From the IMG/VR virus record IMGVR_UViG_3300003375_000002: 62,394 bases of DNA, one strand, 5' to 3'. The notes under the pieces were generated by a model, which saw nothing but the letters and a program-made list of their open reading frames with translations, did no database searches and was not told the origin of the DNA. The translations under genes and the position numbers were made by a program. Positions 1-62,394 of the stretch are shown here, piece after piece. The number at the start of each line of letters is the position of its first letter. Positions within the stretch are counted from its first letter, which is position 1. The DNA is from a virus.

Positions 1-130
1 AGCCGTCGCCGTAGCCGTAGCCGTAGCCGTCGCCGTTGCCGTAGCCGTAGCCGTTGCCGTAGCCGTAGCCGTTGCCGTAGCCGTCGCCGTTGCCGTAGCC
101 GTAGCCGTAGCCGTTGCCGTAGCCGTCGCC
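1..130. repeat. Tandem 6-nt coding repeat (units gccgta / gccgtc / gccgtt)
   Basis: Direct reading: uninterrupted hexanucleotide units from base 1 to about 130. The same repeat family occurs at 62262..62394. Confidence 0.95.
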
Positions 131-154
131 GACAGGCTTAAAATTTTCGCTCAT
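1..154 (-). CDS. Gly-X dipeptide-repeat protein, N-terminal part (runs off the window start; continues at 62394..62218 if circular)
   Basis: ATG at 154-152 overlaps the TGA of ORF 151..456 (ATGA). My translation is MSENFKPV followed by GDGYGNGYGYGYGNGDGYGN... Too short in-window to appear in the ORF track. Confidence 0.6.
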   Translation of the reverse strand, partial: MSENFKPVGDGYGNGYGYGYGNGDGYGNGYGYGNGYGYGNGDGYGYGYGDG

Positions 155-456
155 TTGATTCCCCAATCGTCAGAAACTTGAACTGCGAAAATCTCCGCTC
201 CAGCAGGAATATCGACATCTTCAACCGGGCGAAGATCTGCCTTGGCCTTCTTAGGATCTTCGATCATTCCCGCGAAACCGATACTCTCCCATTTGAAAAC
301 ATGAAGTGCACGAGAGAGCTTTATTCTGCCATTCTCCCGCGTGACGTCGCCAGCAAAAATCCATCCGCGATCGACGACGATCACTGCACGATTTCCATTG
401 CTCTTGACAGGAGCATATTCAACGCCATTGATTGTGATGATATTCGACATTTCCAT
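151..456 (-). CDS. Hypothetical early protein (101 aa)
   Basis: ORF track. GAGGAG Shine-Dalgarno upstream (a second ATG at 450 has better spacing). Stop overlaps the start of the repeat ORF. Confidence 0.7.
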   Translation of the reverse strand: MEMSNIITINGVEYAPVKSNGNRAVIVVDRGWIFAGDVTRENGRIKLSRALHVFKWESIGFAGMIEDPKKAKADLRPVEDVDIPAGAEIFAVQVSDDWGIK

Positions 457-508: not shown

Positions 509-1327
509 TCACATGGCAGCAGTGTCGGAGTCAACTTCCGGCGCAGCGATGTCGCCCTTGATCTCGCCCTTCTTCAGGCTTTCGCGGAATGAAAGCGCAT
601 CACGATAAAGCGCTTCCCAACCTTCGAGTTCGGAGAGCTTCTTGCCGCGCTCGATCTTCCAGCCCATCCAGTCGCCTTCGGCGTTGCTTTCATCGGCGAC
701 GGAAATGTCATACACCCGATAAAACAACGGGGGCGTATAGCTGGTGCCGTCGGAGCGGACGACCTTTTCCGACGTCGCGAGCGTCAGCCACTTCCGCGAC
801 TTCTTGAGCTGGGTGGAGGCCATCGGTAGGAAGCATCGCCTTCCACCCGCAGACAGGTTGAGGCCGAAAAATTGGGCAGTCTCCTGCACCAGATTTCCGT
901 CTTTCGTAAAGGGCCGGTTCTTTTCGTCGCGGGTGCAAGCTTCAAGAATGTCAGCATTCTCGTGAACGGCCACAAGACCCTTGCCGGTGGAGCGCGGTGC
1001 CCATTCCAGCCATTGCTTGACGTAATGAACAGGCAGGAACAAAAGCGGCGGATCGAAAATCTCCTGAGTTCCGACATCGCAGATGTCTCCGATGCTGGCG
1101 CCAGCGATGTATTCGGGCTTTTTTGGTTGGACCTGAGGGCTCAGCGCCTGAAGGATCGTCAAACGAGGAATGATCAAATCGGTCGACTTGACATTCTCAA
1201 GGCCTGAACCGGCTTCAGCCTCGAAAACATCGAGGCTCGTGGCGAGGGCTGTGCTCTTGGGGGTGACGGTGGCGAGGGCCGGTTCGGTTTTCTCCGGCTC
1301 TTTCTTCACAGTTGGCGATTTGGCCAT
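509..1327 (-). CDS. Conserved phage early protein, function unknown (acidic C-terminal tail; possibly ssDNA-binding or recombination-associated)
   Basis: ORF track, 272 aa. First gene of the minus arm. C-terminus is EVDSDTAAM. No motif I can name with confidence. Confidence 0.65.
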   Translation of the reverse strand: MAKSPTVKKEPEKTEPALATVTPKSTALATSLDVFEAEAGSGLENVKSTDLIIPRLTILQALSPQVQPKKPEYIAGASIGDICDVGTQEIFDPPLLFLPVHYVKQWLEWAPRSTGKGLVAVHENADILEACTRDEKNRPFTKDGNLVQETAQFFGLNLSAGGRRCFLPMASTQLKKSRKWLTLATSEKVVRSDGTSYTPPLFYRVYDISVADESNAEGDWMGWKIERGKKLSELEGWEALYRDALSFRESLKKGEIKGDIAAPEVDSDTAAM

Positions 1328-1869: not shown

Positions 1870-2229
1870 ATGACTCGCATCAATCTCGTTCCGCCGGAAG
1901 AGCTCCACGACAAGCACCTGTTGGCCGAATACAGAGAACTGCCGCGCATCTTCCGACTGGCAAGGCGCGCGCCGGAGGCTCCTGAGGTTTACACGCTCGG
2001 GCGCGGGCATGTCATGTTTTTCTACGACAAGCTGGCATTCCTCGCGCAGCGTCAGCGCTCTCTGATCAATGAAATGATCCGGCGAGGCTTCCGGCCGCAA
2101 TTCACAAATATCGATGAATTGATGAATTCGTGCCCGGATGAATTCAAGGGCGATTACGTACCGACGCCTGCCGCCCTCGACCTCAACCGCGCGCGCATCC
2201 TCGCCCGTCAGCCTCAGGAGCGGAAATGA
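1870..2229 (+). CDS. denV: Pyrimidine-dimer DNA glycosylase (T4 endonuclease V family)
   Basis: [27 protein letters not shown]... and [15 protein letters not shown] closely match my memory of T4 DenV ([42 protein letters not shown]). Thr2, Arg3, Arg22, Glu23 and Arg26 are all present. Confidence 0.9.
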   Translation: [119 protein letters not shown]

Positions 2230-2636
2230 CCACTGTCAATTGCATTCCTCTCGAAGAGTTGACCGATCGTCAGCTCAAAGCCGAATATTACGAAATCCAG
2301 CGGGTTTTCAAATGGGTCAACGCGAGCCTGAAAAACGGCAAGCCGATGAAAATTCCTGAGACCTACAGTTTCGGCCCCGGTCATGCGAAATTTTTCTACG
2401 ACAAACTGCAATATTGTGCTGACAGGCTGATCGAAATAATCGACGAGCTGAAATTCAGAAAAATGCGCGTTCAACCGCTCGAACGATTGCCGACTGGCAT
2501 CCCGAAAAGGTTTTTCGGCCGATGGCAACCGACGTCCGCCGATCAGGAGCTGAACCGCGAATGGCTGGCCCGGCGCGCAGCTCTCCAGCCGGAGAAGCCC
2601 AAAAGGCCAGTTTTGACTCCCCGAAACTGGGACTGA
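2226..2636 (+). CDS. Divergent second endonuclease V-like paralogue
   Basis: MTTVNCIPLEELTDRQLKAEYYEIQRV and GPGHAKFFYDKLQY keep Thr2, Glu23 and Arg26 but replace Arg3 and Arg22. ATGA overlap with denV. Confidence 0.8.
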   Translation: MTTVNCIPLEELTDRQLKAEYYEIQRVFKWVNASLKNGKPMKIPETYSFGPGHAKFFYDKLQYCADRLIEIIDELKFRKMRVQPLERLPTGIPKRFFGRWQPTSADQELNREWLARRAALQPEKPKRPVLTPRNWD

Positions 2637-3376: not shown

Positions 3377-4042
3377 ATGGAAGAGAAAATCGAAATCAAA
3401 AAGCGCCTTACCGGCGAGGTAATTTTTTCCGCCAGCATTGATTGCGAACCCGGCGCGCTGCCATCTGTTAAATTAGGTTTGGCCGTTATGTTGGCTATTA
3501 AAAGCCGCGCGTACCTCAGCCGCGCGGACCTCAGTGGCGCGGACCTCAGTGGCGCGGACCTCAGTGGCGCGGACCTCAGCCGCGCGGACCTCAGTGGCGC
3601 GAACTTCAGTGGCGCGAACCTCAGTGGCGCGAACCTCAGCCGCGCGGACCTCAGTGGCGCGAACTTCAGTGGCGCGAACCTCAGTGGCGCGAACCTCAGT
3701 GGCGCGGACCTCAGTGGCGCGGACCTCAGCCGCGCGTACCTCAACGGCGCGAACCTCAGCGGCGCGGACCTCAGCCGCGCGAACCTCAGCCGCGCGAACC
3801 TCAGCCGCGCGAACCTCAGCAGCGCGAACCTCGTTGATGGTGGTCAAAGATCAGACGGTTATCGTTTTATTGGGTGGGTGAAAGATTCAATCCTTCAAAT
3901 TCTCGCAGGTTGTCGCGATTTTTCAATTATTGAAGCGCGCGCGCATTGGCTTGCCACGCGCGGGGGGACGCCGCTTGGCGATGAAACGATCTGTATTCTA
4001 GATCACATCGAAGCTGTTGCAAAGATTCGCAAACTTATCTGA
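3377..4042 (+). CDS. Pentapeptide-repeat protein with a conserved C-terminal domain
   Basis: About 22 consecutive A(D/N)(L/F)S(G/R) pentapeptides. The C-terminal ~65 aa is shared with ORF 10107..10820. Confidence 0.9.
3505..3832 (+). repeat. Tandem 15-nt coding repeat (pentapeptide array)
   Basis: Near-identical units such as gcgcggacctcagtg / gcgcgaacctcagtg, read directly. Confidence 0.95.
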
Positions 4043-4097: not shown

Positions 4098-5057
4098 ATG
4101 TCGCACGAAGTTGAAACAATGGCCTACGCCAACGCAGTACCATGGCATGGTTTGGGCAACAAGGTCGACCCAAAAACGACCGTCGACGAAATGCTCGTCG
4201 CTGCTGGTCTTGATTGGCAGGTCAAGCTGCGTCCCCTTTTCGCCCAGACGGAAAACGGCGAAATGATCAAGCTGCCATTGCGGCGGGCGCTGGTCCGCAG
4301 TTCCGACAACAAGATCATGTCCGTCACTGGCGACATCTGGAAACCCTTCCAGAACAAGGACGCCATGGAATTCTTCCGCGACTACACTGAGGCCGGTGGC
4401 GCGCGGCTGGAGACAGCCGGCAGCCTTCATGGCGGAAAGTTGATCTGGGCTCTCGCCTCGATCAACGAGGGCTTTACCGTCAAGCGCACCGACCACACAA
4501 AAGGCTACATTCTGCTGACGTCGCCCCATGAAGTCGGCAAGGCCATCACTGTCCGCACCACGACAGTGCGCGTGGTCTGTGCCAACACGATGGCTATGGC
4601 CGTCAATGGATCTCAGGCGTCTTATTCGCAGAACCACCTGACGAAGTTCAACGCTGCCGCTGCCAAGGAGACCATCGTCCTCGCTCGCGCCCAAGTGCAT
4701 CAGGCGCACATCGATGCTCAGGCTCTGACTCAGCTGCAGCTAAGCGAATTCGACACTGTGCGTTTTCTGGCGCGCTTTTTTCAGCCTGCTCCTGAAGGCG
4801 TCAAGGAGGACGCCCATGCCGAAACCCTCCTCAATGTCCACAACGAGCGCTCCAAGGTCTTCGATGCCATTCTGAAGAGCGTCAACGATGCGCCGGGTGC
4901 CGATCCGGGCACAGGCTGGGGTGTGCTGAATGGCGTCACCCATTGGGCCGACCATGTCGCTGGCAACCAGTCTGCCGCCCGGCTCTACAACGCATGGCTG
5001 GGTGAGCGTGCCGCGACAAAGCTCAAGGTTCGAGATGCCTTGCTCCAGATGGTTTAA
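4098..5057 (+). CDS. DUF932-family phage/plasmid protein
   Basis: N-terminal MAYANAVPWHGLGN and later VVCANT motifs. Length and pattern match my memory of DUF932 (TIGR03299-like). Confidence 0.75.
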   Translation: MSHEVETMAYANAVPWHGLGNKVDPKTTVDEMLVAAGLDWQVKLRPLFAQTENGEMIKLPLRRALVRSSDNKIMSVTGDIWKPFQNKDAMEFFRDYTEAGGARLETAGSLHGGKLIWALASINEGFTVKRTDHTKGYILLTSPHEVGKAITVRTTTVRVVCANTMAMAVNGSQASYSQNHLTKFNAAAAKETIVLARAQVHQAHIDAQALTQLQLSEFDTVRFLARFFQPAPEGVKEDAHAETLLNVHNERSKVFDAILKSVNDAPGADPGTGWGVLNGVTHWADHVAGNQSAARLYNAWLGERAATKLKVRDALLQMV

Positions 5058-5248: not shown

Positions 5249-6946
5249 ATGAACATCAAGATTGAGGGCAATCGCTGCCGAACGACCAGCGCTTACAATG
5301 TGAGGGTGCTGCGCGCATTGCCGAAACTCGAAGGGATGAAGCGCTGGGGCGCGGAGCGGACGCTCTCGTTCGAAAATACGCCTTACAATCTCGAAATTTG
5401 GCGCCAGACGTTCCCTGAGGCGACGATTGAGGGCGGAATGCCGATCGCGCCAACAGGCGTGGTCGCTGACGCCCTTTTCGACCTCAAGGGCGACCGCCCT
5501 AGGTTCGCCTACAGAACCCAGCCTAGAGCCCATCAGAGGGCCGCGCTTGAAAAGCTAGCTGGGAAACCGGCTGTCGGCCTTTTCATGGACATTGGCACCG
5601 GGAAAAGCTGGACAGCGATCGCGATGATCGGGATGCGCTGGTGCGCTGGTCAGTCCGAACACGTCCTGTTGATCGCCAAGAACGGAGTGCACCAGCAATG
5701 GGTGAGTGAACAGATCCCTCAACACATCAGTCCTGTTGTCCCTTGGAAGGCTTGGGTTTGGAAAGAGGGCAAGACTGCCGCAGCGAAATTTGAAACAATG
5801 CTCAAATTCGATGGCCTAAAGATTTTCGCCATCAACATCGACGCCATCAGAACGAAAAAGGCCGAAGCTTCCATCCTACGATTCCTTCAGGCGGCCAATG
5901 GAACTGCCACAATTATCGAGGACGAAAGTCAGGACATCAAAAATCTCTCGTCCGAGCGCACCAAGGCAGCCATAAAATTTCGCAAATTGTGCAAATATGC
6001 AATGATCATGACTGGCACCCCAATAGCCAAGGATCTTGTCGACCTTTTCAGCCAGTTCGCATTCCTCGACGAAAGTATCATTGGTCATCGATATATGACC
6101 ACATTCAAGAATCAATATTGTGTTTTGCAACCGAACCCATTCAGCCCCAAGCCCAAAGTCGTCGGCCACAAGAATGTTGAAGAGTTGTACAAGCGGATTG
6201 ATCCTTACATTTTCCGAATAACGACCGAAGAGGCTCTCGATCTGCCGCCCAAGGTTTTCATTTCCAGGCCATTCGTGTTGAGTGCCGAACAGATCAAAAT
6301 AATGAAGGACCTCAAGGAGCAATTTTTCTCCGATTTCGGAAATGACGACGCTGCATCAGTCAGAAACGCTGCATCCCTTTTGACCAAACTGCAGCAGGTC
6401 AGCTGCGGTTTTCTGCCGATGGATGATGGATCATTCCGCGAGTTGCCAAATCCTCGCCTCGACGAATTGATGACGATACTCGAACAGCGTGAGGGCAAGG
6501 CGATTGTCTGGTGCCGGTTCAATCGTGACATAATTAATGTCAAGAATGCATTGAACAAGATAGAGCCGGAAAGCGCAGTCGATTATTACGGCAAAACGAG
6601 TGCCGCGATGCGCGCCGAAAACAAAGACAATTTCCTCGATTCAAAATCCGGCGTCCGCTATCTCGTCGCTTCGCCAGAGGCTGCCGGCACCGGCCTCAAC
6701 CTGCAAGGCATCTGCCGGACGAATGTCTATTATTCCAACAGCTTCAATTCGCTCGCCCGTTGGCAGAGTGAGGGGCGCACATGGCGCGATGGAACCACTG
6801 GCACCGTCACCTATTTTGATCTGGTGGCGCGGAAAAGTCCAGACGCCAAAATCTTGGCCAATCTGCGAGCCAAGAAAGATATCAGCACTCTGACATTGGA
6901 CGACTATCGCAAGCTCCTGCTCATGGAGGAAGAAGATGAGATTTAG
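5249..6946 (+). CDS. SNF2/DEAD-like superfamily-2 helicase
   Basis: Walker A DIGTGKSWTA, DExx box IIEDESQD, MTGTP, AAGTGLNLQ, and motif VI QSEGRTWRDG. Confidence 0.85.
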   Translation: MNIKIEGNRCRTTSAYNVRVLRALPKLEGMKRWGAERTLSFENTPYNLEIWRQTFPEATIEGGMPIAPTGVVADALFDLKGDRPRFAYRTQPRAHQRAALEKLAGKPAVGLFMDIGTGKSWTAIAMIGMRWCAGQSEHVLLIAKNGVHQQWVSEQIPQHISPVVPWKAWVWKEGKTAAAKFETMLKFDGLKIFAINIDAIRTKKAEASILRFLQAANGTATIIEDESQDIKNLSSERTKAAIKFRKLCKYAMIMTGTPIAKDLVDLFSQFAFLDESIIGHRYMTTFKNQYCVLQPNPFSPKPKVVGHKNVEELYKRIDPYIFRITTEEALDLPPKVFISRPFVLSAEQIKIMKDLKEQFFSDFGNDDAASVRNAASLLTKLQQVSCGFLPMDDGSFRELPNPRLDELMTILEQREGKAIVWCRFNRDIINVKNALNKIEPESAVDYYGKTSAAMRAENKDNFLDSKSGVRYLVASPEAAGTGLNLQGICRTNVYYSNSFNSLARWQSEGRTWRDGTTGTVTYFDLVARKSPDAKILANLRAKKDISTLTLDDYRKLLLMEEEDEI

Positions 6947-9895: not shown

Positions 9896-10110
9896 CCATC
9901 CGCGACCGCATAGCACGGGCGATAGCGCCATACGAGCTAGAGCCGACGCCGGAGACACTGGCGACCGCTGATCGCGTGATTGAGGCGTTGCGCGAGCCGG
10001 GCGAGGCGACGATTGAACGGATGTGGGAGCGTTTCGTGTTCTCACCAAGTCTGACGGCGATACAAACGAGATTGCGCGCCGCCTACGCGGCCATATGGAG
10101 CGAGAAATGA
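9892..10110 (+). CDS. Hypothetical protein (72 aa)
   Basis: ATG at 9892 overlaps the previous stop (ATGA). First gene of the GC-richer block. Confidence 0.6.
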   Translation: MTIRDRIARAIAPYELEPTPETLATADRVIEALREPGEATIERMWERFVFSPSLTAIQTRLRAAYAAIWSEK

Positions 10111-10820
10111 GCGAACAACGCAAATACGAATTTACCGGCGAAACCAAGGAATGGTGCGGCATCACGTTGCGCCAAATCCGCGCCGTTCGCGCGATTGGTT
10201 GGATCGCTGCCGGAACTGTTGGCGGCTGGATCGAAAGTGAAGAAAATCTCGATCAAGTTTCCGGCAATGCGTGGGTCTACGGCAATGCGTGGGTCTACGG
10301 CAATGCGTGCGTCTCCGGCAATGCGCAGGTCTCCGGCAATGCGTGGGTCTCCGGCAATGCGCGGGTCTACGGCAATGCGCAGGTCTCCGGCAATGCGTGG
10401 GTCTTCGGCAATGCGTGGGTCTACGGCAATGCGTGGGTCTACGGCGATGCGCGCGTCTACGGCGATGCGCGCGTCTCCGGCGATGCGTGGGTCTCCGGCA
10501 ATGCGCGGGTCTACGGCAATGCGCAGGTCTCCGGCAATGCGTGGGTCTTCGGCAATGCGTGGGTCTACGGCAATGCGCGGGTTGTGTCAAAAATTATCGT
10601 TGCAACGCGATCTGACGGCTACACGTTTTTACTAACCCCCGACAAAGACAATATTTTGCGGATTATCGCGGGTTGTCGGTATTTCGACATTGAACAAGCG
10701 CGCAAACATTGGCGCGAAACGCGCGGCGGAACGCAATTAGGCGACGAAAGCCTAGCGATTGTCGATCATTTGGAGCGCATGGCTAAGATTTGCGGGCTTA
10801 TAAATGGAGGCGACAAATGA
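10107..10820 (+). CDS. Hexapeptide-repeat (G-N/D-A-x-V-x) protein with the same C-terminal domain as 3377..4042
   Basis: About 18 consecutive hexapeptides (GNAWVY GNAWVY GNACVS GNAQVS ...). C-terminus is RSDGYTFLL...ILRIIAGCRYFDIEQARKHWRETRGGTQLGDESLAIVDHLERMAKICGLI. Confidence 0.85.
   Translation: MSEQRKYEFTGETKEWCGITLRQIRAVRAIGWIAAGTVGGWIESEENLDQVSGNAWVYGNAWVYGNACVSGNAQVSGNAWVSGNARVYGNAQVSGNAWVFGNAWVYGNAWVYGDARVYGDARVSGDAWVSGNARVYGNAQVSGNAWVFGNAWVYGNARVVSKIIVATRSDGYTFLLTPDKDNILRIIAGCRYFDIEQARKHWRETRGGTQLGDESLAIVDHLERMAKICGLINGGDK
10259..10582 (+). repeat. Tandem 18-nt coding repeat (hexapeptide array)
   Basis: Units such as tccggcaatgcgtgggtc / tacggcaatgcgtgggtc, read directly. Confidence 0.95.
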
Positions 10821-11376: not shown

Positions 11377-11591
11377 CCCGCCGCCCCGCCACGCGCCAGC
11401 AAGTCGCGCGCGCGATAGCCGCGATAGAGGCCATTGGCAAGCCGGTTGCCGCCGTGTCTGTCCACAAGGACGGGACAATCACGGTTCGCATAGGCGATCC
11501 GCTGGACAGGTCAACCGAGAGCCGCGACGATGCCGAATTTGAAAATATCATCGCCGGGGCGAAACATGGTCAGAATCGCCATGCGAATTAG
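11373..11591 (+). CDS. Hypothetical protein (72 aa) directly upstream of the integrase
   Basis: ORF track. ATGA overlap start. Confidence 0.55.
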   Translation: MTRRPATRQQVARAIAAIEAIGKPVAAVSVHKDGTITVRIGDPLDRSTESRDDAEFENIIAGAKHGQNRHAN

Positions 11592-12621
11592 GTATGTGCA
11601 AATCATCCGATCCAAGGGGATCGAGTTTGCCTATTACCGGCGCGACGGTCGCCGTGTGCCGATCAAGGCGCGTCCGATTGCGTCGCCAGCCTTTGCCGCC
11701 GAGGTTGAGGCAATCGAGAAAGCATGGAAAACGACGCCGATTCCCGCGCCCAAGAACACGGTTGGCGTTTTGATCGCGGCTTATAAGAAATCCCCGCGCT
11801 GGAATGAAATCAAGCCCGCGACCCGGGCAAGCTATGAGCGCGCCTTTGCTGCGCTTAAGCCATTGGAGAATTTCCCCGCCGCGTCGCTGGATCGCCCCAA
11901 GATTTTCCGCTTTCGGGATTCCGTGGTGTTCCCAAAAAATGGCCGATGGATGGCGAACTATGCCGTGACCGTTCTAGGGCTGCTGCTGGCCTTTGGCGTT
12001 GACGCTGGCATGGTCAAGGCCAACCCCCTTGCCGAGCCCGTCAGGAAGCTACGGAAGGCCAAGGGAAGCGCAAGGGCGAATAGGCCATGGACCGCCGAGG
12101 AACGCGCCGTGGTGCTCGCCGAGGCCCCTAACCATGTCTTACTGCCCTTGGCCCTGCTGATGACAACCGGGATGCGGAAGGCCGATGTGTTCAAGGCCAC
12201 GCTAGGCGCGATCAAGGACGGCATGATTTCCGTCAGGACCAGCAAGACAGATCAACTGGTTTCCCTGCCCGTTCACCCCGTTCTGGCGTCCGCGTTGGCG
12301 ACGCGCCCGACCGCCCGGAGCCTCCAAATCGCCCTGAACAGCGACAAGAAACCTTGGACGCCGGATGGTTTCGATACCGTATGGCATAGGTTCCGAGGCC
12401 GCTTGGAAGCCGAGGGCAAGGTTGCGCCCGGGCTGACCCTGCATGGCCTTCGCCACACTCTCGGGACGCTCTTGAAAGAAGCCGGGCTAGACGACGGCGC
12501 GATTGCGGACGTTCTAGGCCAATCATCAACCAGCATGGCCCGGCATTACAGCCGGGAGGCGCAACTATCGACGGACACGAAAGCCAAGGTCCGGGCGATC
12601 AATTTTGGAGGCGGCAAATGA
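11566..12621 (+). CDS. int: Tyrosine recombinase / phage integrase
   Basis: C-terminal catalytic region LHGLRHTLGTLL...MARHYS (R-H-R-Y type). Start chosen at ATG 11566 (GGGG 7 nt upstream); 11581 is also possible. Confidence 0.85.
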   Translation: MVRIAMRIRYVQIIRSKGIEFAYYRRDGRRVPIKARPIASPAFAAEVEAIEKAWKTTPIPAPKNTVGVLIAAYKKSPRWNEIKPATRASYERAFAALKPLENFPAASLDRPKIFRFRDSVVFPKNGRWMANYAVTVLGLLLAFGVDAGMVKANPLAEPVRKLRKAKGSARANRPWTAEERAVVLAEAPNHVLLPLALLMTTGMRKADVFKATLGAIKDGMISVRTSKTDQLVSLPVHPVLASALATRPTARSLQIALNSDKKPWTPDGFDTVWHRFRGRLEAEGKVAPGLTLHGLRHTLGTLLKEAGLDDGAIADVLGQSSTSMARHYSREAQLSTDTKAKVRAINFGGGK

Positions 12622-54252: not shown

Positions 54253-57200
54253 TCAATCCTCCATATCGCCGATGTAACGCACTGCGGAGATTCGCAGCAT
54301 GCGGAAGCCCTTGGGCACAGTGCCCTTGAAAGCGTAGAGTGCCTTGCCCGGTCGGCCGCGCTCGACGATTTGTCGACCTAGCTTCTCGAACATGTAGCGA
54401 TCAACCTTCCCGAAAATTCTGTCTGTGTCGTCTGCTATTGTCAGATTTAGGCTCTGTGTTGGGCCAGTGAGAACCTTACCGTTGCGCTTGGCAATGTTGA
54501 CCTGCTCATTTTCGTCGCGCGGCTTGATCTGAGCGACAGTCGCGATCACCAATGCATCATAATCCTGATCCTTGCACTGGAGCTTGATCACATTGGTCGG
54601 AACGGTGAAAATGCTGCGCGCCTTCGGATCAGGCATCAGCCGGTCAACTGCATCCTGGATTGGCCAAAGACTATCAATTTCCGTCTGTGCATTTTTCATC
54701 ATCTTTTCCGCACGCGGCGGCAGCGGTTCGCCCCGCGCTCGCGAAGACATGATTGCGCTGACCATCTTGGGGCCGATGCCCTTCACATTCTGGATAGGAC
54801 CGATCAGCACTTTCTTCCCATTCCTGAAACCGGCTGTCCATTTGTCAGTCGACAATTCGGCATCAATCGGAACATAATCGAAACCCTCTGCCTTCATCTC
54901 GCGCAGAATTCGGATCTGCTTCTCCGGATCGTTCTCGTGAGTCAATGTGGCTGCAGCGAATTCGAATGGGTGATGCGCCTTCATGTATGCGCACCAATAG
55001 CTGATAATTCCATAAGCGACAGAATGACTGCGGTTGAACGCCCACGAGCCATAGGCGCAATTATGAACAACTATTCCATTCGCAAGAAAATTGTGATGTG
55101 GTGCCGGCATGTGAATGTCATATACATCTTCAAATCCATGCGGAACGATTGAAACTATTTTATCGCTAAAAATAGCTCTGCCTTTTTTCCAAGGATTTGG
55201 ATTGCTTTCAAGGGCTGCATGGAGTTTCTTGTGGCACTTTCTGCAAACTGCCATCAAATTGTCTATTCTATCATTGCTGTGGTCCATATCAATGTGGTGA
55301 GTCTCCTCATAAGGTGAAATGTGGCAATGCTGACAATTCTTGTAATTGGCTTTTAAATATCTTTTTCCCTCTGCGAGTGTCGGTATACCTTGCTTAATCT
55401 TATACCACCAATTGTGGCCTCCAGAGCCACTCTTTTTTGGAGATTTCCTTTTTGTCGGAATAGTGCCTGCATCGCTGACGACAGAATCTCCAACCTTAAG
55501 ATCTTGCAACGCAGAATAGGAAAGATCTGGCATCAAGAATTTGTGCTCTTTAGTGGCCTTGATTCTGTTTCCACTTTCTGTTGTAAGAAGATATGTCATC
55601 TTCTTGCCAGAATATGTCACCCCGAAATTTTCAAATGGTTTAAGAGACTCTCCATCGAACATCAATATTTTCTGCCTCTTTCTTTTGGCAGAATTTTTTT
55701 CTGTTGGACCGAGTCCTCCTCGATCGTAGAGTTGCTTAATGGTAAATTTTCTGTATCTTCCTTTTGATGGGAATGGATTTTCAATCTCCGTATCTCCAGA
55801 AAGACACAAATCGTCCCACACCTTTCCGCAAACTTCCGCTGGAACGCCCCGCTCAATCGCGCCTTTCTTGAATCTGTCTCCGTATTGGTCGAAATATTCC
55901 TTGCCTAAGCTCTTGCTCATCGCCTTGCGCAATGCGGTCACATCGTCCCAGCTGAGTCCGCCAATCTCGCGACTGACCTGCATTACCTGCTCTTGATAAG
56001 CGACAATTCCGAGTGTATTCTTCAAATAAGGCTCAAACAGCGGATGCGGATAAGTCAGCGGAGATTGACCGTTCTTGCGCTTGACCCATTCGTTGGTGCC
56101 GCCGCTGGCCATCGGCCCTGGACGGGCGAGGGCTGTGATGGCGATGATGTCTTCGAGGCTGCGGACCTTGACCTGATTGGTGATGGATTGAAGGGCTGCA
56201 CCCATGAACTGAAATATTCCGGAGAACTGACCCTTGTTCAAAACGTCGAAGGCTGCCTTGTCGTCCAGCGGAACACTCTCCAAATGATGCATCGGCAGAC
56301 CGGCCATCGTCAATGCATCCTCGAACACACTCAACTGCGTCAGCCCGAGCGCGTCAATTTTCAAAAGGTTGAGCTCTTCGGCATCCTTTTTGTCGCACAT
56401 GGTGGCGCCAGTGCGCGCGTCCACAGCCACATAATCCGTCACTGGGGTCTCAGTGATCACGATGCCGGCTGCATGCTGGCCGAAGTGACGCGGATGGCCC
56501 TCCATCCGCGCTGCGATCATGATCTCCGGATTTTTCTTGAGCAACTCTTGGCCGGATGGCGTTGTGTTCAGCGTGTCCTCAAGCGTCGACAGCGCGCGTG
56601 AGTCGCCGCCCGAGCGAACAATCAGCGAGTCGACGACCTTGTCGCACAGCCACTTCGGAACACCGAGTGCGGTTCCTGCCTCTTCAATGGCTGAACGCGG
56701 ACGGAACAGTGCAACTGTCCCGAGGCGCGCAATGTGATCGCGGCCATATTTATGCTCCATATATTCGAACACGAGATGGCGCTTCTGATCCGAGAAATCG
56801 ACGTCAATGTCTGGCAGATCGGAGCGAGTGATGTCAATGAACCGCTCGAAAAGCAGGTCATACTTCAGCGGATCGATGGTCGTGATGTCGAGCAGATAGC
56901 AAACAAGACTGCCGCAGCTGGAGCCGCGCGCCGGTCCGCAGATCATGCGCTGACGCGCCCAAGTCATCATGTCTGCGACGATGAAAAAATAATCCTCGAA
57001 CTTTTTCTCAGCTATGAGGTCCAACTCGCGCTTGAGTCGGTCGGCATAAACGGGGTCCGTCAGGTCGGTGCCAGTGCGAATGGCGCCATTCCGGCACATC
57101 TTCTCCAGCGTCAGGGGCTTTTCCGGGCTGAGGAGCGTCGCAGTCTTTAGTCTTGCGTTGCAAAGGGTCGCTACATGGTCAGCCGTGGTCCAGGATGCCG

Positions 57201-57843
57201 CAAGAATGTCCGGCGTGACGATTCCCCCACAGGCGATTTTCCAGGCCTCCTGCCCCATCAGGGATTGATCGTAGGTTTGGACCGAAGCGCCACGTCCGCA
57301 GAGCACCTCGTAGAAACCTTCATCCTCCAGCCGTAGGAACTTGTTGTCGCTGACAGCGACCAGCCGGTGGCCGCGCTTCAAGGCTTGATTGATGTAGCCT
57401 TTTGAACAGGCTGGCCCCAGCCCGACATAAATGTCATCCTGAACATCAAAATTTTCCAACAGCGACCGATGGCCGACGATCTTGATGACGCCTTCAGCGA
57501 TGACCGCCTGTTCATAGGTCAACAGCGGCTCATAACGGAATTGAGAAGTCGCGAGCTCGACGAGCTGATTGATAAATTTAACATCATCAATCGCCAGAAA
57601 TGTCCAATAGTCAATTGTCGGCTTCTTGGCGTGAATTGATTCAGTCACTGCCAGTTCAACGCCATAGAGCGGCTTGAGCCCGGCCTTTTTCGACAGCTTG
57701 GCCCATCGCGTCCAGCCGAATGTGCTGGCGCGGTCAGTTATCGGTGCATAGGTCGCGCCATTTTCGATCAGGCGCTCCATCGTCTCATCGATCATTCCTG
57801 CTGCCGCGCGGAAGCTGTAGCCGGTGCGTACGCGGAGGGTCAT
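54253..57843 (-). CDS. dnaE: DNA polymerase III alpha subunit (DnaE-type) interrupted by an intein
   Basis: N-terminal PHP-like region. Core motifs GPARGSSCGSLVCYLL, DIDVDF, KIDALGL, AFNRSHSVAY. Intein at residues 680-928. Confidence 0.9.
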   Translation of the reverse strand: MTLRVRTGYSFRAAAGMIDETMERLIENGATYAPITDRASTFGWTRWAKLSKKAGLKPLYGVELAVTESIHAKKPTIDYWTFLAIDDVKFINQLVELATSQFRYEPLLTYEQAVIAEGVIKIVGHRSLLENFDVQDDIYVGLGPACSKGYINQALKRGHRLVAVSDNKFLRLEDEGFYEVLCGRGASVQTYDQSLMGQEAWKIACGGIVTPDILAASWTTADHVATLCNARLKTATLLSPEKPLTLEKMCRNGAIRTGTDLTDPVYADRLKRELDLIAEKKFEDYFFIVADMMTWARQRMICGPARGSSCGSLVCYLLDITTIDPLKYDLLFERFIDITRSDLPDIDVDFSDQKRHLVFEYMEHKYGRDHIARLGTVALFRPRSAIEEAGTALGVPKWLCDKVVDSLIVRSGGDSRALSTLEDTLNTTPSGQELLKKNPEIMIAARMEGHPRHFGQHAAGIVITETPVTDYVAVDARTGATMCDKKDAEELNLLKIDALGLTQLSVFEDALTMAGLPMHHLESVPLDDKAAFDVLNKGQFSGIFQFMGAALQSITNQVKVRSLEDIIAITALARPGPMASGGTNEWVKRKNGQSPLTYPHPLFEPYLKNTLGIVAYQEQVMQVSREIGGLSWDDVTALRKAMSKSLGKEYFDQYGDRFKKGAIERGVPAEVCGKVWDDLCLSGDTEIENPFPSKGRYRKFTIKQLYDRGGLGPTEKNSAKRKRQKILMFDGESLKPFENFGVTYSGKKMTYLLTTESGNRIKATKEHKFLMPDLSYSALQDLKVGDSVVSDAGTIPTKRKSPKKSGSGGHNWWYKIKQGIPTLAEGKRYLKANYKNCQHCHISPYEETHHIDMDHSNDRIDNLMAVCRKCHKKLHAALESNPNPWKKGRAIFSDKIVSIVPHGFEDVYDIHMPAPHHNFLANGIVVHNCAYGSWAFNRSHSVAYGIISYWCAYMKAHHPFEFAAATLTHENDPEKQIRILREMKAEGFDYVPIDAELSTDKWTAGFRNGKKVLIGPIQNVKGIGPKMVSAIMSSRARGEPLPPRAEKMMKNAQTEIDSLWPIQDAVDRLMPDPKARSIFTVPTNVIKLQCKDQDYDALVIATVAQIKPRDENEQVNIAKRNGKVLTGPTQSLNLTIADDTDRIFGKVDRYMFEKLGRQIVERGRPGKALYAFKGTVPKGFRMLRISAVRYIGDMED
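55060..55806 (-). mobile_element. Class-1 intein (249 aa) with an HNH endonuclease insert
   Basis: Starts CLSGDTEI. Block B is ATKEH. HNH motif is CQHCH...HHIDMDHSNDRIDNLMAVCRKCHKKLH. Ends GIVVHN followed by +1 Cys (CAYGSWAFNRSH). The segment is markedly AT-rich. Confidence 0.9.
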
Positions 57844-61642: not shown

Positions 61643-62206
61643 TCACTTTTTCTTGCTCGGAGCCTTGATCTTTGTCGTGCGACCGGCAAACAGCCCGAGC
61701 TTTTCCAGCGGAACAGGATCGCCTGCCTTCATTCGCTCGCGAATGTGCGCCAACAGCGTCTGCGGATGAACGCCCATCTTTGAGCTGACGTCGTAGCCTT
61801 CATTCTCAAGGCGTCCTGCGAGGTCCAAGGCCATGTTGTGCTCGGACTTCTTGAAATTGATCGATAGCTCAGTCTTGATGAGACTTTCTGCTCCATTCAA
61901 CTCAAGCCACTCAATGGCGTCGTCGCGCTCGACTTCATCCTTCGGCAAGCTGCCGGCCAAGAAGTCCTCGACCTTAAGACTCCAGCCACTGTCAAGCGTA
62001 ATGTTGGAAACGCCAGCCTCTGCCATCAAGTCCGGCAGGGCTTGTGTCTTGATGGCATTTAAACGGCGTTTCGCCTCGCTCAAACTTTCTTCCAATTCGG
62101 CGATAATCTGCTCGTTTGAAACAGCTTCTTCCGCTGCAGCGATCAACCGCTGCATGATTGGCGTGCCGTTGTCGGCTGGCTCTTGAAGATCGAAAACATC
62201 TGACAT
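61643..62206 (-). CDS. Hypothetical early protein with an N-terminal coiled coil (187 aa)
   Basis: ATG at 62206 with GGAG 9 nt upstream. The ORF-track start at 62221 is a TTG inside the upstream gene's stop region. Confidence 0.6.
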   Translation of the reverse strand: MSDVFDLQEPADNGTPIMQRLIAAAEEAVSNEQIIAELEESLSEAKRRLNAIKTQALPDLMAEAGVSNITLDSGWSLKVEDFLAGSLPKDEVERDDAIEWLELNGAESLIKTELSINFKKSEHNMALDLAGRLENEGYDVSSKMGVHPQTLLAHIRERMKAGDPVPLEKLGLFAGRTTKIKAPSKKK

Positions 62207-62217
62207 TTTTATCTCCA

Positions 62218-62394
62218 TCAAAAAATTCTTCGCATTCTGTTTGACGAAATTGTTCCTTGACCGTAGCCGTAGCCGTAGCCGTAGCCGTAGCCGTAGCCGT
62301 AGCCGTAGCCGTTGCCGTCGCCGTAGCCGTCGCCGTAGCCGTTGCCGTTGCCGTCGCCGTAGCCGTCGCCGTAGCCGTAGCCGTAGCCGTCGCC
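62218..62394 (-). CDS. Gly-X dipeptide-repeat protein, C-terminal part (enters from the window end)
   Basis: My translation: GDGYGYGYGDGYGDGNGNGYGDGYGDGNGYGYGYGYGYGYGYGYGQGTISSNRMRRIF then TGA at 62220-62218. Confidence 0.6.
   Translation of the reverse strand, partial: GDGYGYGYGDGYGDGNGNGYGDGYGDGNGYGYGYGYGYGYGYGYGQGTISSNRMRRIF
62262..62394. repeat. Tandem 6-nt coding repeat, same family as 1..130
   Basis: Direct reading. The last 34 nt equal the first 34 nt of the window. Confidence 0.95.

Follow-up and report, generated by a model that had tools for sequence, protein, structure and literature searches.

An apparently mobile two-gene phage cassette that encodes a (Gly-X)n repeat protein and a small, predicted beta-barrel partner

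Introduction

The virus record IMGVR_UViG_3300003375_000002 of IMG/VR is a stretch of 62,394 nucleotides (nt), referred to below, at its full length, as the window. Split across its two ends is an open reading frame (ORF) that consists almost entirely of Gly-X dipeptides, X being Tyr, Asn or Asp. Such a sequence raises the question of whether it is a gene at all and, if so, what a phage could gain from a protein of this kind. An original prediction, made from the letters of the window alone, regarded the ORF as a real, expressed gene for a non-globular protein, and could match it to no described phage function. In the present study, this ORF (gene B) was found to be, very probably, one half of a real coupled two-gene module, the other half being the 101-amino-acid (aa) ORF that precedes it (gene A). 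The partnership with A is the key fact about the locus, and had been missed by the original prediction. The features from which the argument starts are the following.

151..456, minus strand: gene A, annotated as a 101-aa ORF; about 99 aa from its likely start, the ATG at 450; its TGA overlaps the ATG of gene B (ATGA)
1..154, minus strand: 5' part of gene B; ATG at 154..152, MSENFKPV, then (GGC-NAC)n, read as G-Y/N/D dipeptides down to base 1
62218..62394, minus strand: 3' part of gene B; G-X dipeptides, the tail QGTISSNRMRRIF, which fits the motif of the family, and TGA at 62220..62218
1..34 and 62361..62394, no strand: terminal overlap, an exact identity of 34 nt through which the contig closes on itself inside the array

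Reconstruction of gene B across the contig ends

The sequences of both halves of the ORF were confirmed as originally described, together with the ATGA overlap with the ORF at 151..456 (located at 151..154) and the 11-nt spacer between the TGA of B and the ATG at 62206. This spacer contains GGAGA, and a Shine-Dalgarno-like site, GGGGA, lies 7 nt upstream of the ATG of B. Tandem Repeats Finder reported period-6 arrays at 1..131 and 62261..62394 with scores of 199 and 212, which are far beyond chance. As a phage contig, the window closes into a circle and was broken inside a (GGC-NAC)n hexamer array, and other contigs of the same phage (L032, L033 and L131) likewise end within the array.

Plain abutting of the two halves was rejected, as it puts the hexamers out of phase and shifts the frame. 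With the 34-nt overlap trimmed, B is an ORF of 98 aa, and with a second, shorter end overlap of 10 nt trimmed, one of 106 aa; both are overlap-trimmed lengths, and a contig broken within the array does not fix its copy number. The alternating G-X stretch then comes to some 80–88 residues, versus the 110 implied by summing the halves. The intact 98-aa form reads MSENFKPV-(G-Y/N/D)39-QGTISSNRMRRIF, and its 39 hexamers are GGCTAC (23 copies), GGCAAC (8), GGCGAC (7) and GGTCAA (1). Where the unit is GGC-NAC (38 of the 39), variation is confined to the first position of the X codon. An intact gene is provided by a contig 96% identical to the window (L001), which spans the array and encodes a B protein of 86 aa; this has the MSENFKPVG start and the GTISSNRMRRIF tail of the window protein, and differs from it in the order and number of the Y/N/D units.

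Linkage of genes A and B

The genomic setting of the pair was compared at 88 sampled loci (80 viral and 8 from genomes), each encoding a relative of A with 61–93% identity. At all 88 of them, the beginning of a (G-X)n ORF on the same strand coincides with the stop codon of A or precedes it by 0–12 nt. As the start of B lies at or across the stop codon of A, the two genes are therefore likely to be translationally coupled. At least 12 of the 88 A-bearing contigs end inside the array. A phmmer search with B returned 286 small metagenome proteins containing (G-[YNDS])n runs, the best two of which (P0001 and P0047) share the pattern KPVG...repeat...S.HR.RR; on both of their contigs, the gene directly upstream, which overlaps the start of B, is 76–81% identical to A of the window. 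The matches of B to Pfam and NCBIfam models (TrAA12, keratin-associated and serine-rich families) were below cut-offs and compositional, and were discarded.

It should be noted that an open frame alone proves nothing in this case, because the array leaves all but one of the six frames open. Reading the array as Ala-Thr would make every hexamer change synonymous, but this frame lacks a start codon and continues into the next gene; the Arg-Leu reading, which shares its frame with the neighbouring DUF7307 gene, lacks a start codon too. Neither frame is kept in lineages using other codons. The repeat unit is GGG-TAC in L073, GGC-NAT in L100 and L082, and GGT-NAT in the uncultured phage genome cthkR962. 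All of these encode (G-Y/N/D)n, and their alternative frames change to Gly-Thr/Val-Arg or Ala-Met/Trp-Leu. Only the G-X reading survives the change of codons between lineages, which indicates that selection acts on the G-X protein. Even the degenerate arrays of L119 and L081 still read G-X.

The ends of the protein are conserved as well. An N-terminal motif, [FM][RMK]P[VI]G, was recognized in the complete B ORFs (Pro in 66 of 70, Gly in 70 of 70), and a basic C-terminal tail of the form G[TS][VIC][SNT]...[RK].RR, with the core form GT[VIC]S..R.RR, in the set of 71 complete ORFs. B of the window carries both, as FKPVG and GTISSNRMRRIF. The length of B in the 71 complete ORFs ranges from 37 to 164 aa (median 95), with a core of 72 residues at the median. 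At 65 loci, the X positions of the core are occupied by Tyr (1104), Asp (449), Asn (360), Ser (112), Phe (42), His (26) and Cys (18), and the 98 residues of the window protein include 40 Gly, 23 Tyr, 10 Asn and 7 Asp. Neither Lys nor Arg occurs in the core. When B alone was modelled with AlphaFold2 (AF2), a mean predicted local distance difference test (pLDDT) value of 37 and no secondary structure at all were obtained. B is thus predicted to be disordered, and its non-globular character, which had been proposed from the absence of a hydrophobic core, was borne out as a prediction from a single sequence.

An artefact, i.e. an assembly error or a chance open frame in a simple repeat, would fit the fact that contigs break inside the array, the openness of five of the six frames and an array length that the window contig does not fix. 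However, the array is intact in the independent contig with 96% identity, it is present in individually sequenced cultured phages, and it is linked to A at 88 of 88 loci. The artefact explanation retains almost no probability and is effectively refuted. Rather, the comparison of loci supports B as a real, translated gene in the G-X frame that is coupled to the upstream ORF. The view that this is a real, expressed gene thus gained from the linkage, the end motifs and the conservation of the frame, and also from transcripts in a cultured relative (see below).

Mobility of the cassette

In the window, the two genes lie between the following neighbours.

509..1327, minus strand: upstream flank; Pam3_Gp34-like protein, PF23977
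61643..62206, minus strand: downstream flank; DUF7307 / Pam3 gp33-like protein, PF23984

The wider surroundings are a replication region with genes for ThyX, PNKP, an exonuclease, an intein-bearing DnaE and a primase, and the original prediction saw B as tightly embedded in a replication/recombination operon. B is, however, no fixed part of it. In seven related contigs (L002–L008, with DUF7307 proteins 51–59% identical), the gp34-like and gp33-like genes adjoin each other, and A and B are absent. The neighbours of A and B are also unrelated between the contigs of P0001 and P0047, on which A remains 76–81% identical to that of the window; they are an integrase and lysis genes in L034 and a helicase and SSB in L035. 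When all ORFs of the 88 loci were clustered, no third shared gene was found; excluding A and its antisense and alternative-frame shadows, the most widespread ORF family was present at 7 of the 88 loci. Because no third gene travels with the pair, because its contexts are unrelated and because it is absent between the same flanks, A and B together appear to be a self-contained, horizontally mobile two-gene phage cassette, which in the window phage was inserted between the Pam3 gp34-like and gp33-like genes. Loss of the ORF in relatives with conserved flanks had been named beforehand as an observation that would speak against a real gene. Such a loss does formally occur in L002–L008, but it does not imply a spurious ORF, since A and B are absent there because the cassette is mobile.

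The cassette is found in at least hundreds of uncultured phage contigs and in several cultured phage lineages. The only isolate bacterial genome found to contain it was that of Novosphingobium sp. NPDC080210 (L119, NZ_JBNNWL010000002.1, ~278.7–285.0 kb). Its copy of B is degenerate, with mixed Gly codons and with A, S, F and H among the X residues, and its neighbours include little beyond Nmad5 (a nucleotide-modification domain) and DUF7838; this copy may reside in a prophage. A 76.8-kb contig binned with a Methylacidiphilales metagenome-assembled genome (JBBAWA010000001.1, loci L121 and L122) has an A gene and an array at both of its ends and is probably, like the window, a circular phage genome broken in the array. 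A run of N is present inside the L122 repeat.

The absence of a third gene also bears on the idea, contained in the original prediction, that B is the precursor of a ribosomally synthesized and post-translationally modified peptide (RiPP). On this account, B would be a leader-core-follower peptide with modified or cross-linked Tyr, Asn or Asp, and A a recognition element or enzyme. The layout of B would suit such a precursor, as its repetitive core is preceded by a short N-terminal 'leader' and followed by a C-terminal motif, both of them conserved, and so would its tight coupling to a small partner gene. However, no conserved radical-SAM, P450, cyclodehydratase, YcaO, protease or transporter gene was found near the cassette at the 88 loci, the ~99-aa beta-barrel protein A matches no enzyme family in Pfam, NCBIfam or PHROGs, and cores of 16–144 residues are long for a RiPP. 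With neither a maturase nor any other gene co-travelling, the idea finds no support, and we regard it as highly improbable.

The partner protein A

Homologues of A are abundant in metagenomes, where they form 2439 clusters at 90% identity. The best 120 homologues (72–100% identical) come with neither a Pfam domain nor a functional name. When 1.84 billion representative proteins were searched with a profile, 248 clusters at 50% identity were obtained, nearly all of them single-domain proteins of ~100 aa. Two are tandem A-A proteins (P0241 and P0242), which hint at self-association of A. Fusions of A with B, which would be Rosetta-stone evidence for the partnership, were sought in the A family and not found, the tandem A-A proteins being the only fusions. 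A DUF6948 protein broken by a GY run (P0029) is a single sequence and a possible artefact, and was not relied on.

An AF2 model of A, based on an alignment of 58 sequences (pLDDT 85.9, predicted template modelling score 0.73), shows an all-beta small barrel with one helix. Compared with the Protein Data Bank (PDB) by Foldseek, its top matches are all Sm/LSm proteins, albeit weak ones (E 0.01–0.1, TMq 0.4–0.5), and A is accordingly predicted to be an Sm-like small beta-barrel. In the BFVD collection, models of DUF6948 proteins match A with E-values of 1.7e-3 to 6e-3 and template modelling (TM) scores of up to 0.65, and the A-like proteins of PMBT5 and the Barba phages, described in the next section, match its predicted structure there as well. 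Sequence searches with A returned no Pfam family even at E <= 10, and no match in NCBIfam, PHROGs, PADLOC or plasmids.

Remote relatives, expression and length variation

Among 50,697 GenBank phage records, megablast with both window ends gave no match, and neither did tblastn with A at E <= 1e-5. When the threshold was relaxed to E <= 10, remote A-like genes (25–31% identical) emerged in Eggerthella phage PMBT5, in 115 Rheinheimera Barba phages and in cthkR962. In each case a (G-Y/N/D)n ORF comes directly after the A-like gene (gp37/gp38 in PMBT5 and gp018/gp017 in the Barba phages). Genes of the DUF6948 family (PF22253) follow the same pattern, as a (G-[YSD])n ORF is located downstream in 10 of 10 readable viral loci; the open G-X frame overlaps the stop codon in 9 of these 10, and in the remaining one (L134) it starts ~510 nt downstream. 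The B ORFs of this type start with MGVIRF.EYDPAKD. Hosts given in the records belong to the Alpha-, Beta- and Gammaproteobacteria and the Actinobacteria, and further contigs were binned with Chloroflexota and Methylacidiphilales genomes. Judging from these sequences, the A-B partnership appears to be conserved at the superfamily level, across phages of Proteobacteria and Actinobacteria.

Two of the remote B genes are misrepresented in the databases. The PMBT5 gene gp38 (L124, NC_048022.1, 27730..28056) is labelled 'adsorption protein' in GenBank, yet it encodes a B-type Gly-Tyr repeat and is part of a replication module. In cthkR962, the protein UOF78669.1 (L126, MW202566.1, 3111..3401), which reads MVKVMVMV, results from translating the (GGT-NAT)n array out of its proper frame; read as G-X, the array gives GYGYGEGYGNGYGDG. 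A role of B in adsorption, or as a Gly-rich adhesin, was considered and rejected, as PMBT5 gp38 lies between genes for SSB and a DnaC-like loader, B of the window lies in a replication region, and the protein has no other domain.

Metagenome proteins (P0002–P0090) also carry (G-[YNDS])n runs joined to small domains of other kinds, in three architectures: DUF7666 (PF24703) preceding the repeat, an N-terminal domain with an 'SGAC/FGAC' motif preceding it, and a C-terminal 'VGCxCH..W' domain after it. The repeat thus seems to be a reusable module.

Evidence for expression comes from published RNA-seq data on phage Barba18A (MK719729), in which gp017 (B) and gp018 (A) are both transcribed, most strongly at the first or the first two time points (PMC9305737, Suppl. 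Table 2). They belong to an early cluster, together with replication and nucleotide-metabolism genes, and their average log counts per million at t1 are 10.1–10.9 for gp017 and 13.0–13.4 for gp018 (PMC9305737). The repeat is not mentioned in the Barba genome paper.

The Barba phages also document the variation in length. Over the stretch containing B, the 115 genomes are distinguished solely by multiples of 6 nt; B has 69, 71, 79 or 83 aa, with at most one residue changed in A. Among metagenome contigs with identical first 270 nt of A, B has 94, 116 or 164 aa, although assembly error may contribute to these differences. That the repeat would vary in length and always preserve the frame, as had been suggested from its 6-nt unit, therefore holds both for the Barba isolates and for the metagenome contigs. 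The related suggestion of a contingency repeat was correct in part: the length does vary in in-frame steps of 6 nt, but the array is not a phase-variable ON/OFF switch.

Codon constraint

Family-wide, GGC makes up 94% of the Gly codons of B, and NAC ~93% of its Tyr, Asn and Asp codons, whereas the respective values for gene A at the same loci are 52% and 54%. The bias is independent of the local GC content (0.38–0.69). In the Barba phages, which have 38% GC, B uses GGC in 29 of 29 and NAC in 29 of 29 cases, and A in 2 of 7 and 2 of 14; A of the window uses them in 3 of 9 and 2 of 15. Possible sources of this constraint are translational selection on a codon-monotonous ORF, homogenization by slippage, or a reading at the level of the nucleic acid.

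In the last case, (GGCNAC)n would be functional as DNA or mRNA, either as an array bound by A or as a recombination or slippage hotspot, and its translation would be secondary. This would explain a constraint on GGC and NAC that is strong, independent of GC content and not shared by the neighbouring gene A, and would agree with the best fold matches of A, which are RNA-binding Sm/LSm rings. Nevertheless, lineages with GGG-TAC or GGT/GGC-NAT units keep the protein and not the DNA unit, the terminal peptide motifs and the placement of start and stop codons are conserved, the arrays that have degenerated still alternate G and X, and the predicted secondary structure of the B mRNA is ordinary (z = -0.25). 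A nucleic-acid element is for these reasons very unlikely.

Another explanation would link the cassette to translation. NAY codons are the set decoded by queuosine-34 tRNAs (Tyr, Asn, Asp and His), which are the targets of colicin E5-type nucleases, and translation of B could report or buffer the state of the Tyr, Asn and Asp tRNAs, for instance after attack by an anticodon nuclease. The X residues, which are almost solely Tyr, Asp and Asn, the near-exclusive use of codons ending in C and the fact that half of the codons of B are GGC all agree with such a device. However, the Asn and Asp codons are exactly single first-position mutants of TAC, and the match of Y/N/D to the queuosine tRNA set may be a by-product of such mutation. 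In addition, His (CAC) is ~15 times rarer at X than Asn or Asp, which points to selection at the protein level; X can also be Ser, Phe or Cys; no tRNA gene is present in the window; and A would be left without a mechanism for its role. The probability that we would assign to a tRNA-linked device is minimal, marginally below that of the RiPP precursor.

Proposed function

The explanation that we consider the best overall, and which we put forward tentatively, is a coupled A-B cassette in which B self-assembles under the control of A. B would be an intrinsically disordered, Tyr-dense polymer of the 'sticker-spacer' type, the function of which would be set by bulk composition and valency and not by its exact sequence, while its conserved ends would be motifs for docking to A, to nucleic acid, or to both. 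Self-association driven by Tyr would lead to a higher-order assembly, such as a condensate, a gel or an amyloid-like fibre, and A, as an oligomer, would nucleate, cap, solubilize or anchor this assembly during early infection. The assembly could then organize phage replication and recombination, or sequester a conserved host component.

Self-association of B similar to that of FUS, as the original prediction had envisaged, is chemically plausible by analogy with short peptides, since the heptapeptides GYGYGYG, NYNYNYN and SYSYSYS self-assemble into amyloid-like fibrils with polar zippers (PMC8163036, PMC10510724, PMC11093263). Taken by itself, the claim that B undergoes Tyr-driven self-assembly controlled by A, which leans on this analogy, is rather doubtful. 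Slightly more doubtful again is its most general form, according to which phages of many bacterial phyla would share a two-component system in which an Sm-like A, early in infection, serves to nucleate or anchor intracellular condensates or fibres of a hypervariable B.

Several observations weigh against self-assembly under the control of A. The AF2 prediction for B had a single sequence as input and is hence a weak test of disorder. Asp occupies ~20% of the X positions, and charges oppose aggregation. The extreme GGC/NAC constraint is not predicted by a purely protein-level model. The remote versions of B (Barba, PMBT5 and DUF6948-type) have neither the RPVG nor the RxRR motif, so that any docking would be lineage-specific. 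The Barba18A RNA-seq data record transcripts and not protein. As for A, its Sm-like character depends on weak Foldseek E-values, with no PDB match below 1e-3, no Pfam LSM match and an empty PDB sequence search.

The same protein could also act as a decoy or inhibitor, B being a flexible, acidic, Tyr-rich bait or plug for a conserved host factor (candidate targets are a defence effector, a protease, a nuclease or a tyrosine-modifying enzyme), and A a chaperone or adaptor that keeps B soluble and targeted; the rapid change in the length of B would then reflect an arms race. The cassette indeed resembles a moron, since its early-region surroundings vary, close relatives with the same gene order do not have it, and it moves between unrelated phages. 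Its early expression and the hypervariable length of B would also be in line with a decoy, and the broad span of hosts would imply a widely conserved target. On the other hand, no PADLOC defence model was matched, although this library covers defence systems and not anti-defence proteins. Purifying selection on A is very strong (70–80% identity family-wide), which is atypical of arms-race proteins, and B varies in the number and order of its repeats without acquiring new residue types. A decoy is therefore unlikely, if less so than the nucleic-acid, RiPP and tRNA explanations.

Should B prove to be a Tyr-driven polymer, the cassette would offer a simple bacterial-virus model for the assembly of low-complexity domains, with a natural length series and a dedicated partner, and could reveal a new way in which phages organize replication or neutralize host factors. 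It would be a natural prokaryotic-virus counterpart of eukaryotic Tyr-based assemblies, distinguished by its unusual codon constraint and by 6-nt slippage as the means of adjusting the repeat number. The choice of GGC-NAC codons is a separate puzzle, with possible links to translation and tRNA biology. Cultured systems are already available for such studies, namely Rheinheimera sp. BAL341 and its Barba phages, for which there are 115 genomes as well as published RNA-seq data, Eggerthella lenta with PMBT5, and the isolate Novosphingobium sp. NPDC080210 with its genomic copy, a possible prophage. A is common in metagenomes and yet unnamed and represented by no model in Pfam, PHROGs or NCBIfam, and B is routinely lost because assemblies break in the array, mis-framed (as in MW202566) or mislabelled (as in PMBT5); this is why a common phage module went unnoticed.

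Other features of the window

Two further tandem-repeat proteins are encoded by the window phage, and several other genes were noted.

3377..4042, plus strand: 221-aa pentapeptide-repeat protein (PF00805, E 3e-43), with a period-15 DNA repeat at 3503..3832
10023..10820, plus strand: 265-aa protein with ~18 tandem hexapeptides (GNAWVY/GNAQVS) and a DNA repeat at 10262..10582; it matches the YdcK beta-solenoid repeat (PF18836, E 7e-26) and is the third tandem-repeat protein of this phage
54253..57843, minus strand: DnaE-type DNA polymerase III alpha subunit of 1196 aa, with an HNH-endonuclease intein at approximately residues 744–928
11530..12621, plus strand: phage integrase family protein (PF00589)

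'Pentapeptide' proteins (gp041 and gp043) are also encoded by the cassette-bearing Barba phages. Given the integrase, the window phage may be temperate. Near the integrase are genes for a DUF932 protein (4098..5057) and a SNF2-type helicase (5249..6946), and a pyrimidine-dimer glycosylase-like ORF (2226..2636).

Comparison with known systems

Literature searches for DUF6948, DUF7666, phage glycine-tyrosine repeats and the motif strings gave no account of an A-B module, and nothing matching the system was found in the papers searched or in Pfam, NCBIfam, PHROGs and PADLOC. The statement of the original prediction that B corresponds to no described phage function therefore still stands after these searches, and the A-B cassette, to judge from them, has not been described before.

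The nearest named family to A is DUF6948 (PF22253), for which a dedicated literature search found no paper. It shares with A the fold, as judged in BFVD, the pairing with a downstream (G-X)n gene, and a signature, R-[GD]-x-G/W-[IV]-x-F-G plus a C-terminal Trp, both parts of which are also present in A. In contrast, A falls below the Pfam threshold for this family, BLASTP of A against a DUF6948 protein gave E = 0.23, and the B proteins of DUF6948 loci have another N-terminal motif, more Ser and no basic tail.

Sm, LSm and Hfq proteins with low-complexity tails are well known, including SmD1 with its (GR)n tail, yeast Lsm4 with a Q/N-rich tail and the Gly-rich Hfq of Acinetobacter. In them, a small beta-barrel of bent strands, the fold to which the best PDB matches of A point, works together with a repetitive, Gly-rich disordered segment, and the A-B pair would be comparable. 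In the A-B pair, however, the repeat is on a separate polypeptide, and A has no Sm1/Sm2 motifs and no Pfam LSM match.

As regards the repeat, RTX or beta-roll sequences (GGxGxDxUx) were considered and rejected, as B shows strict G-X alternation without GG pairs and has no Pfam RTX match. Contingency loci resemble B in having a perfect short tandem repeat within a gene, the copy number of which differs between near-identical genomes; because the unit of B is 6 nt long, slippage alters the length of the protein and never switches it off. Silk fibroin and trematode eggshell proteins also have Gly at every second position, with Tyr-rich variants such as the liver-fluke eggshell protein. These are secreted eukaryotic materials, with Ala or Ser as the predominant X residues in the case of silk, or with cross-links introduced by tanning, whereas B is a small cytoplasmic phage early protein with no signal peptide.

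The [G/S]Y[G/S] domains of the FUS family combine Tyr 'stickers' with Gly and small polar 'spacers', as does the predicted-disordered B, and a function by valency and not by exact sequence, as we propose for B, would be a further likeness. B differs from them in its strict two-residue period and in its content of Tyr (23 of 98 residues, ~25%); the window protein has no Gln, almost no Ser, and Asp at ~18% of X (7 of 39). Moreover, B is a stand-alone protein of ~100 aa from a bacterial virus, with no RNA-binding domain in the same chain. Its resemblance to FUS-type and to silk-like (Gly-X)n sequences is one of composition only. The synthetic (X-Tyr)n heptapeptides have the same dipeptide motifs as the core of B, but they are seven-residue designs studied in vitro, whereas B is 5–20 times longer, mixes Tyr, Asn and Asp, is negatively charged and comes with a dedicated partner protein.

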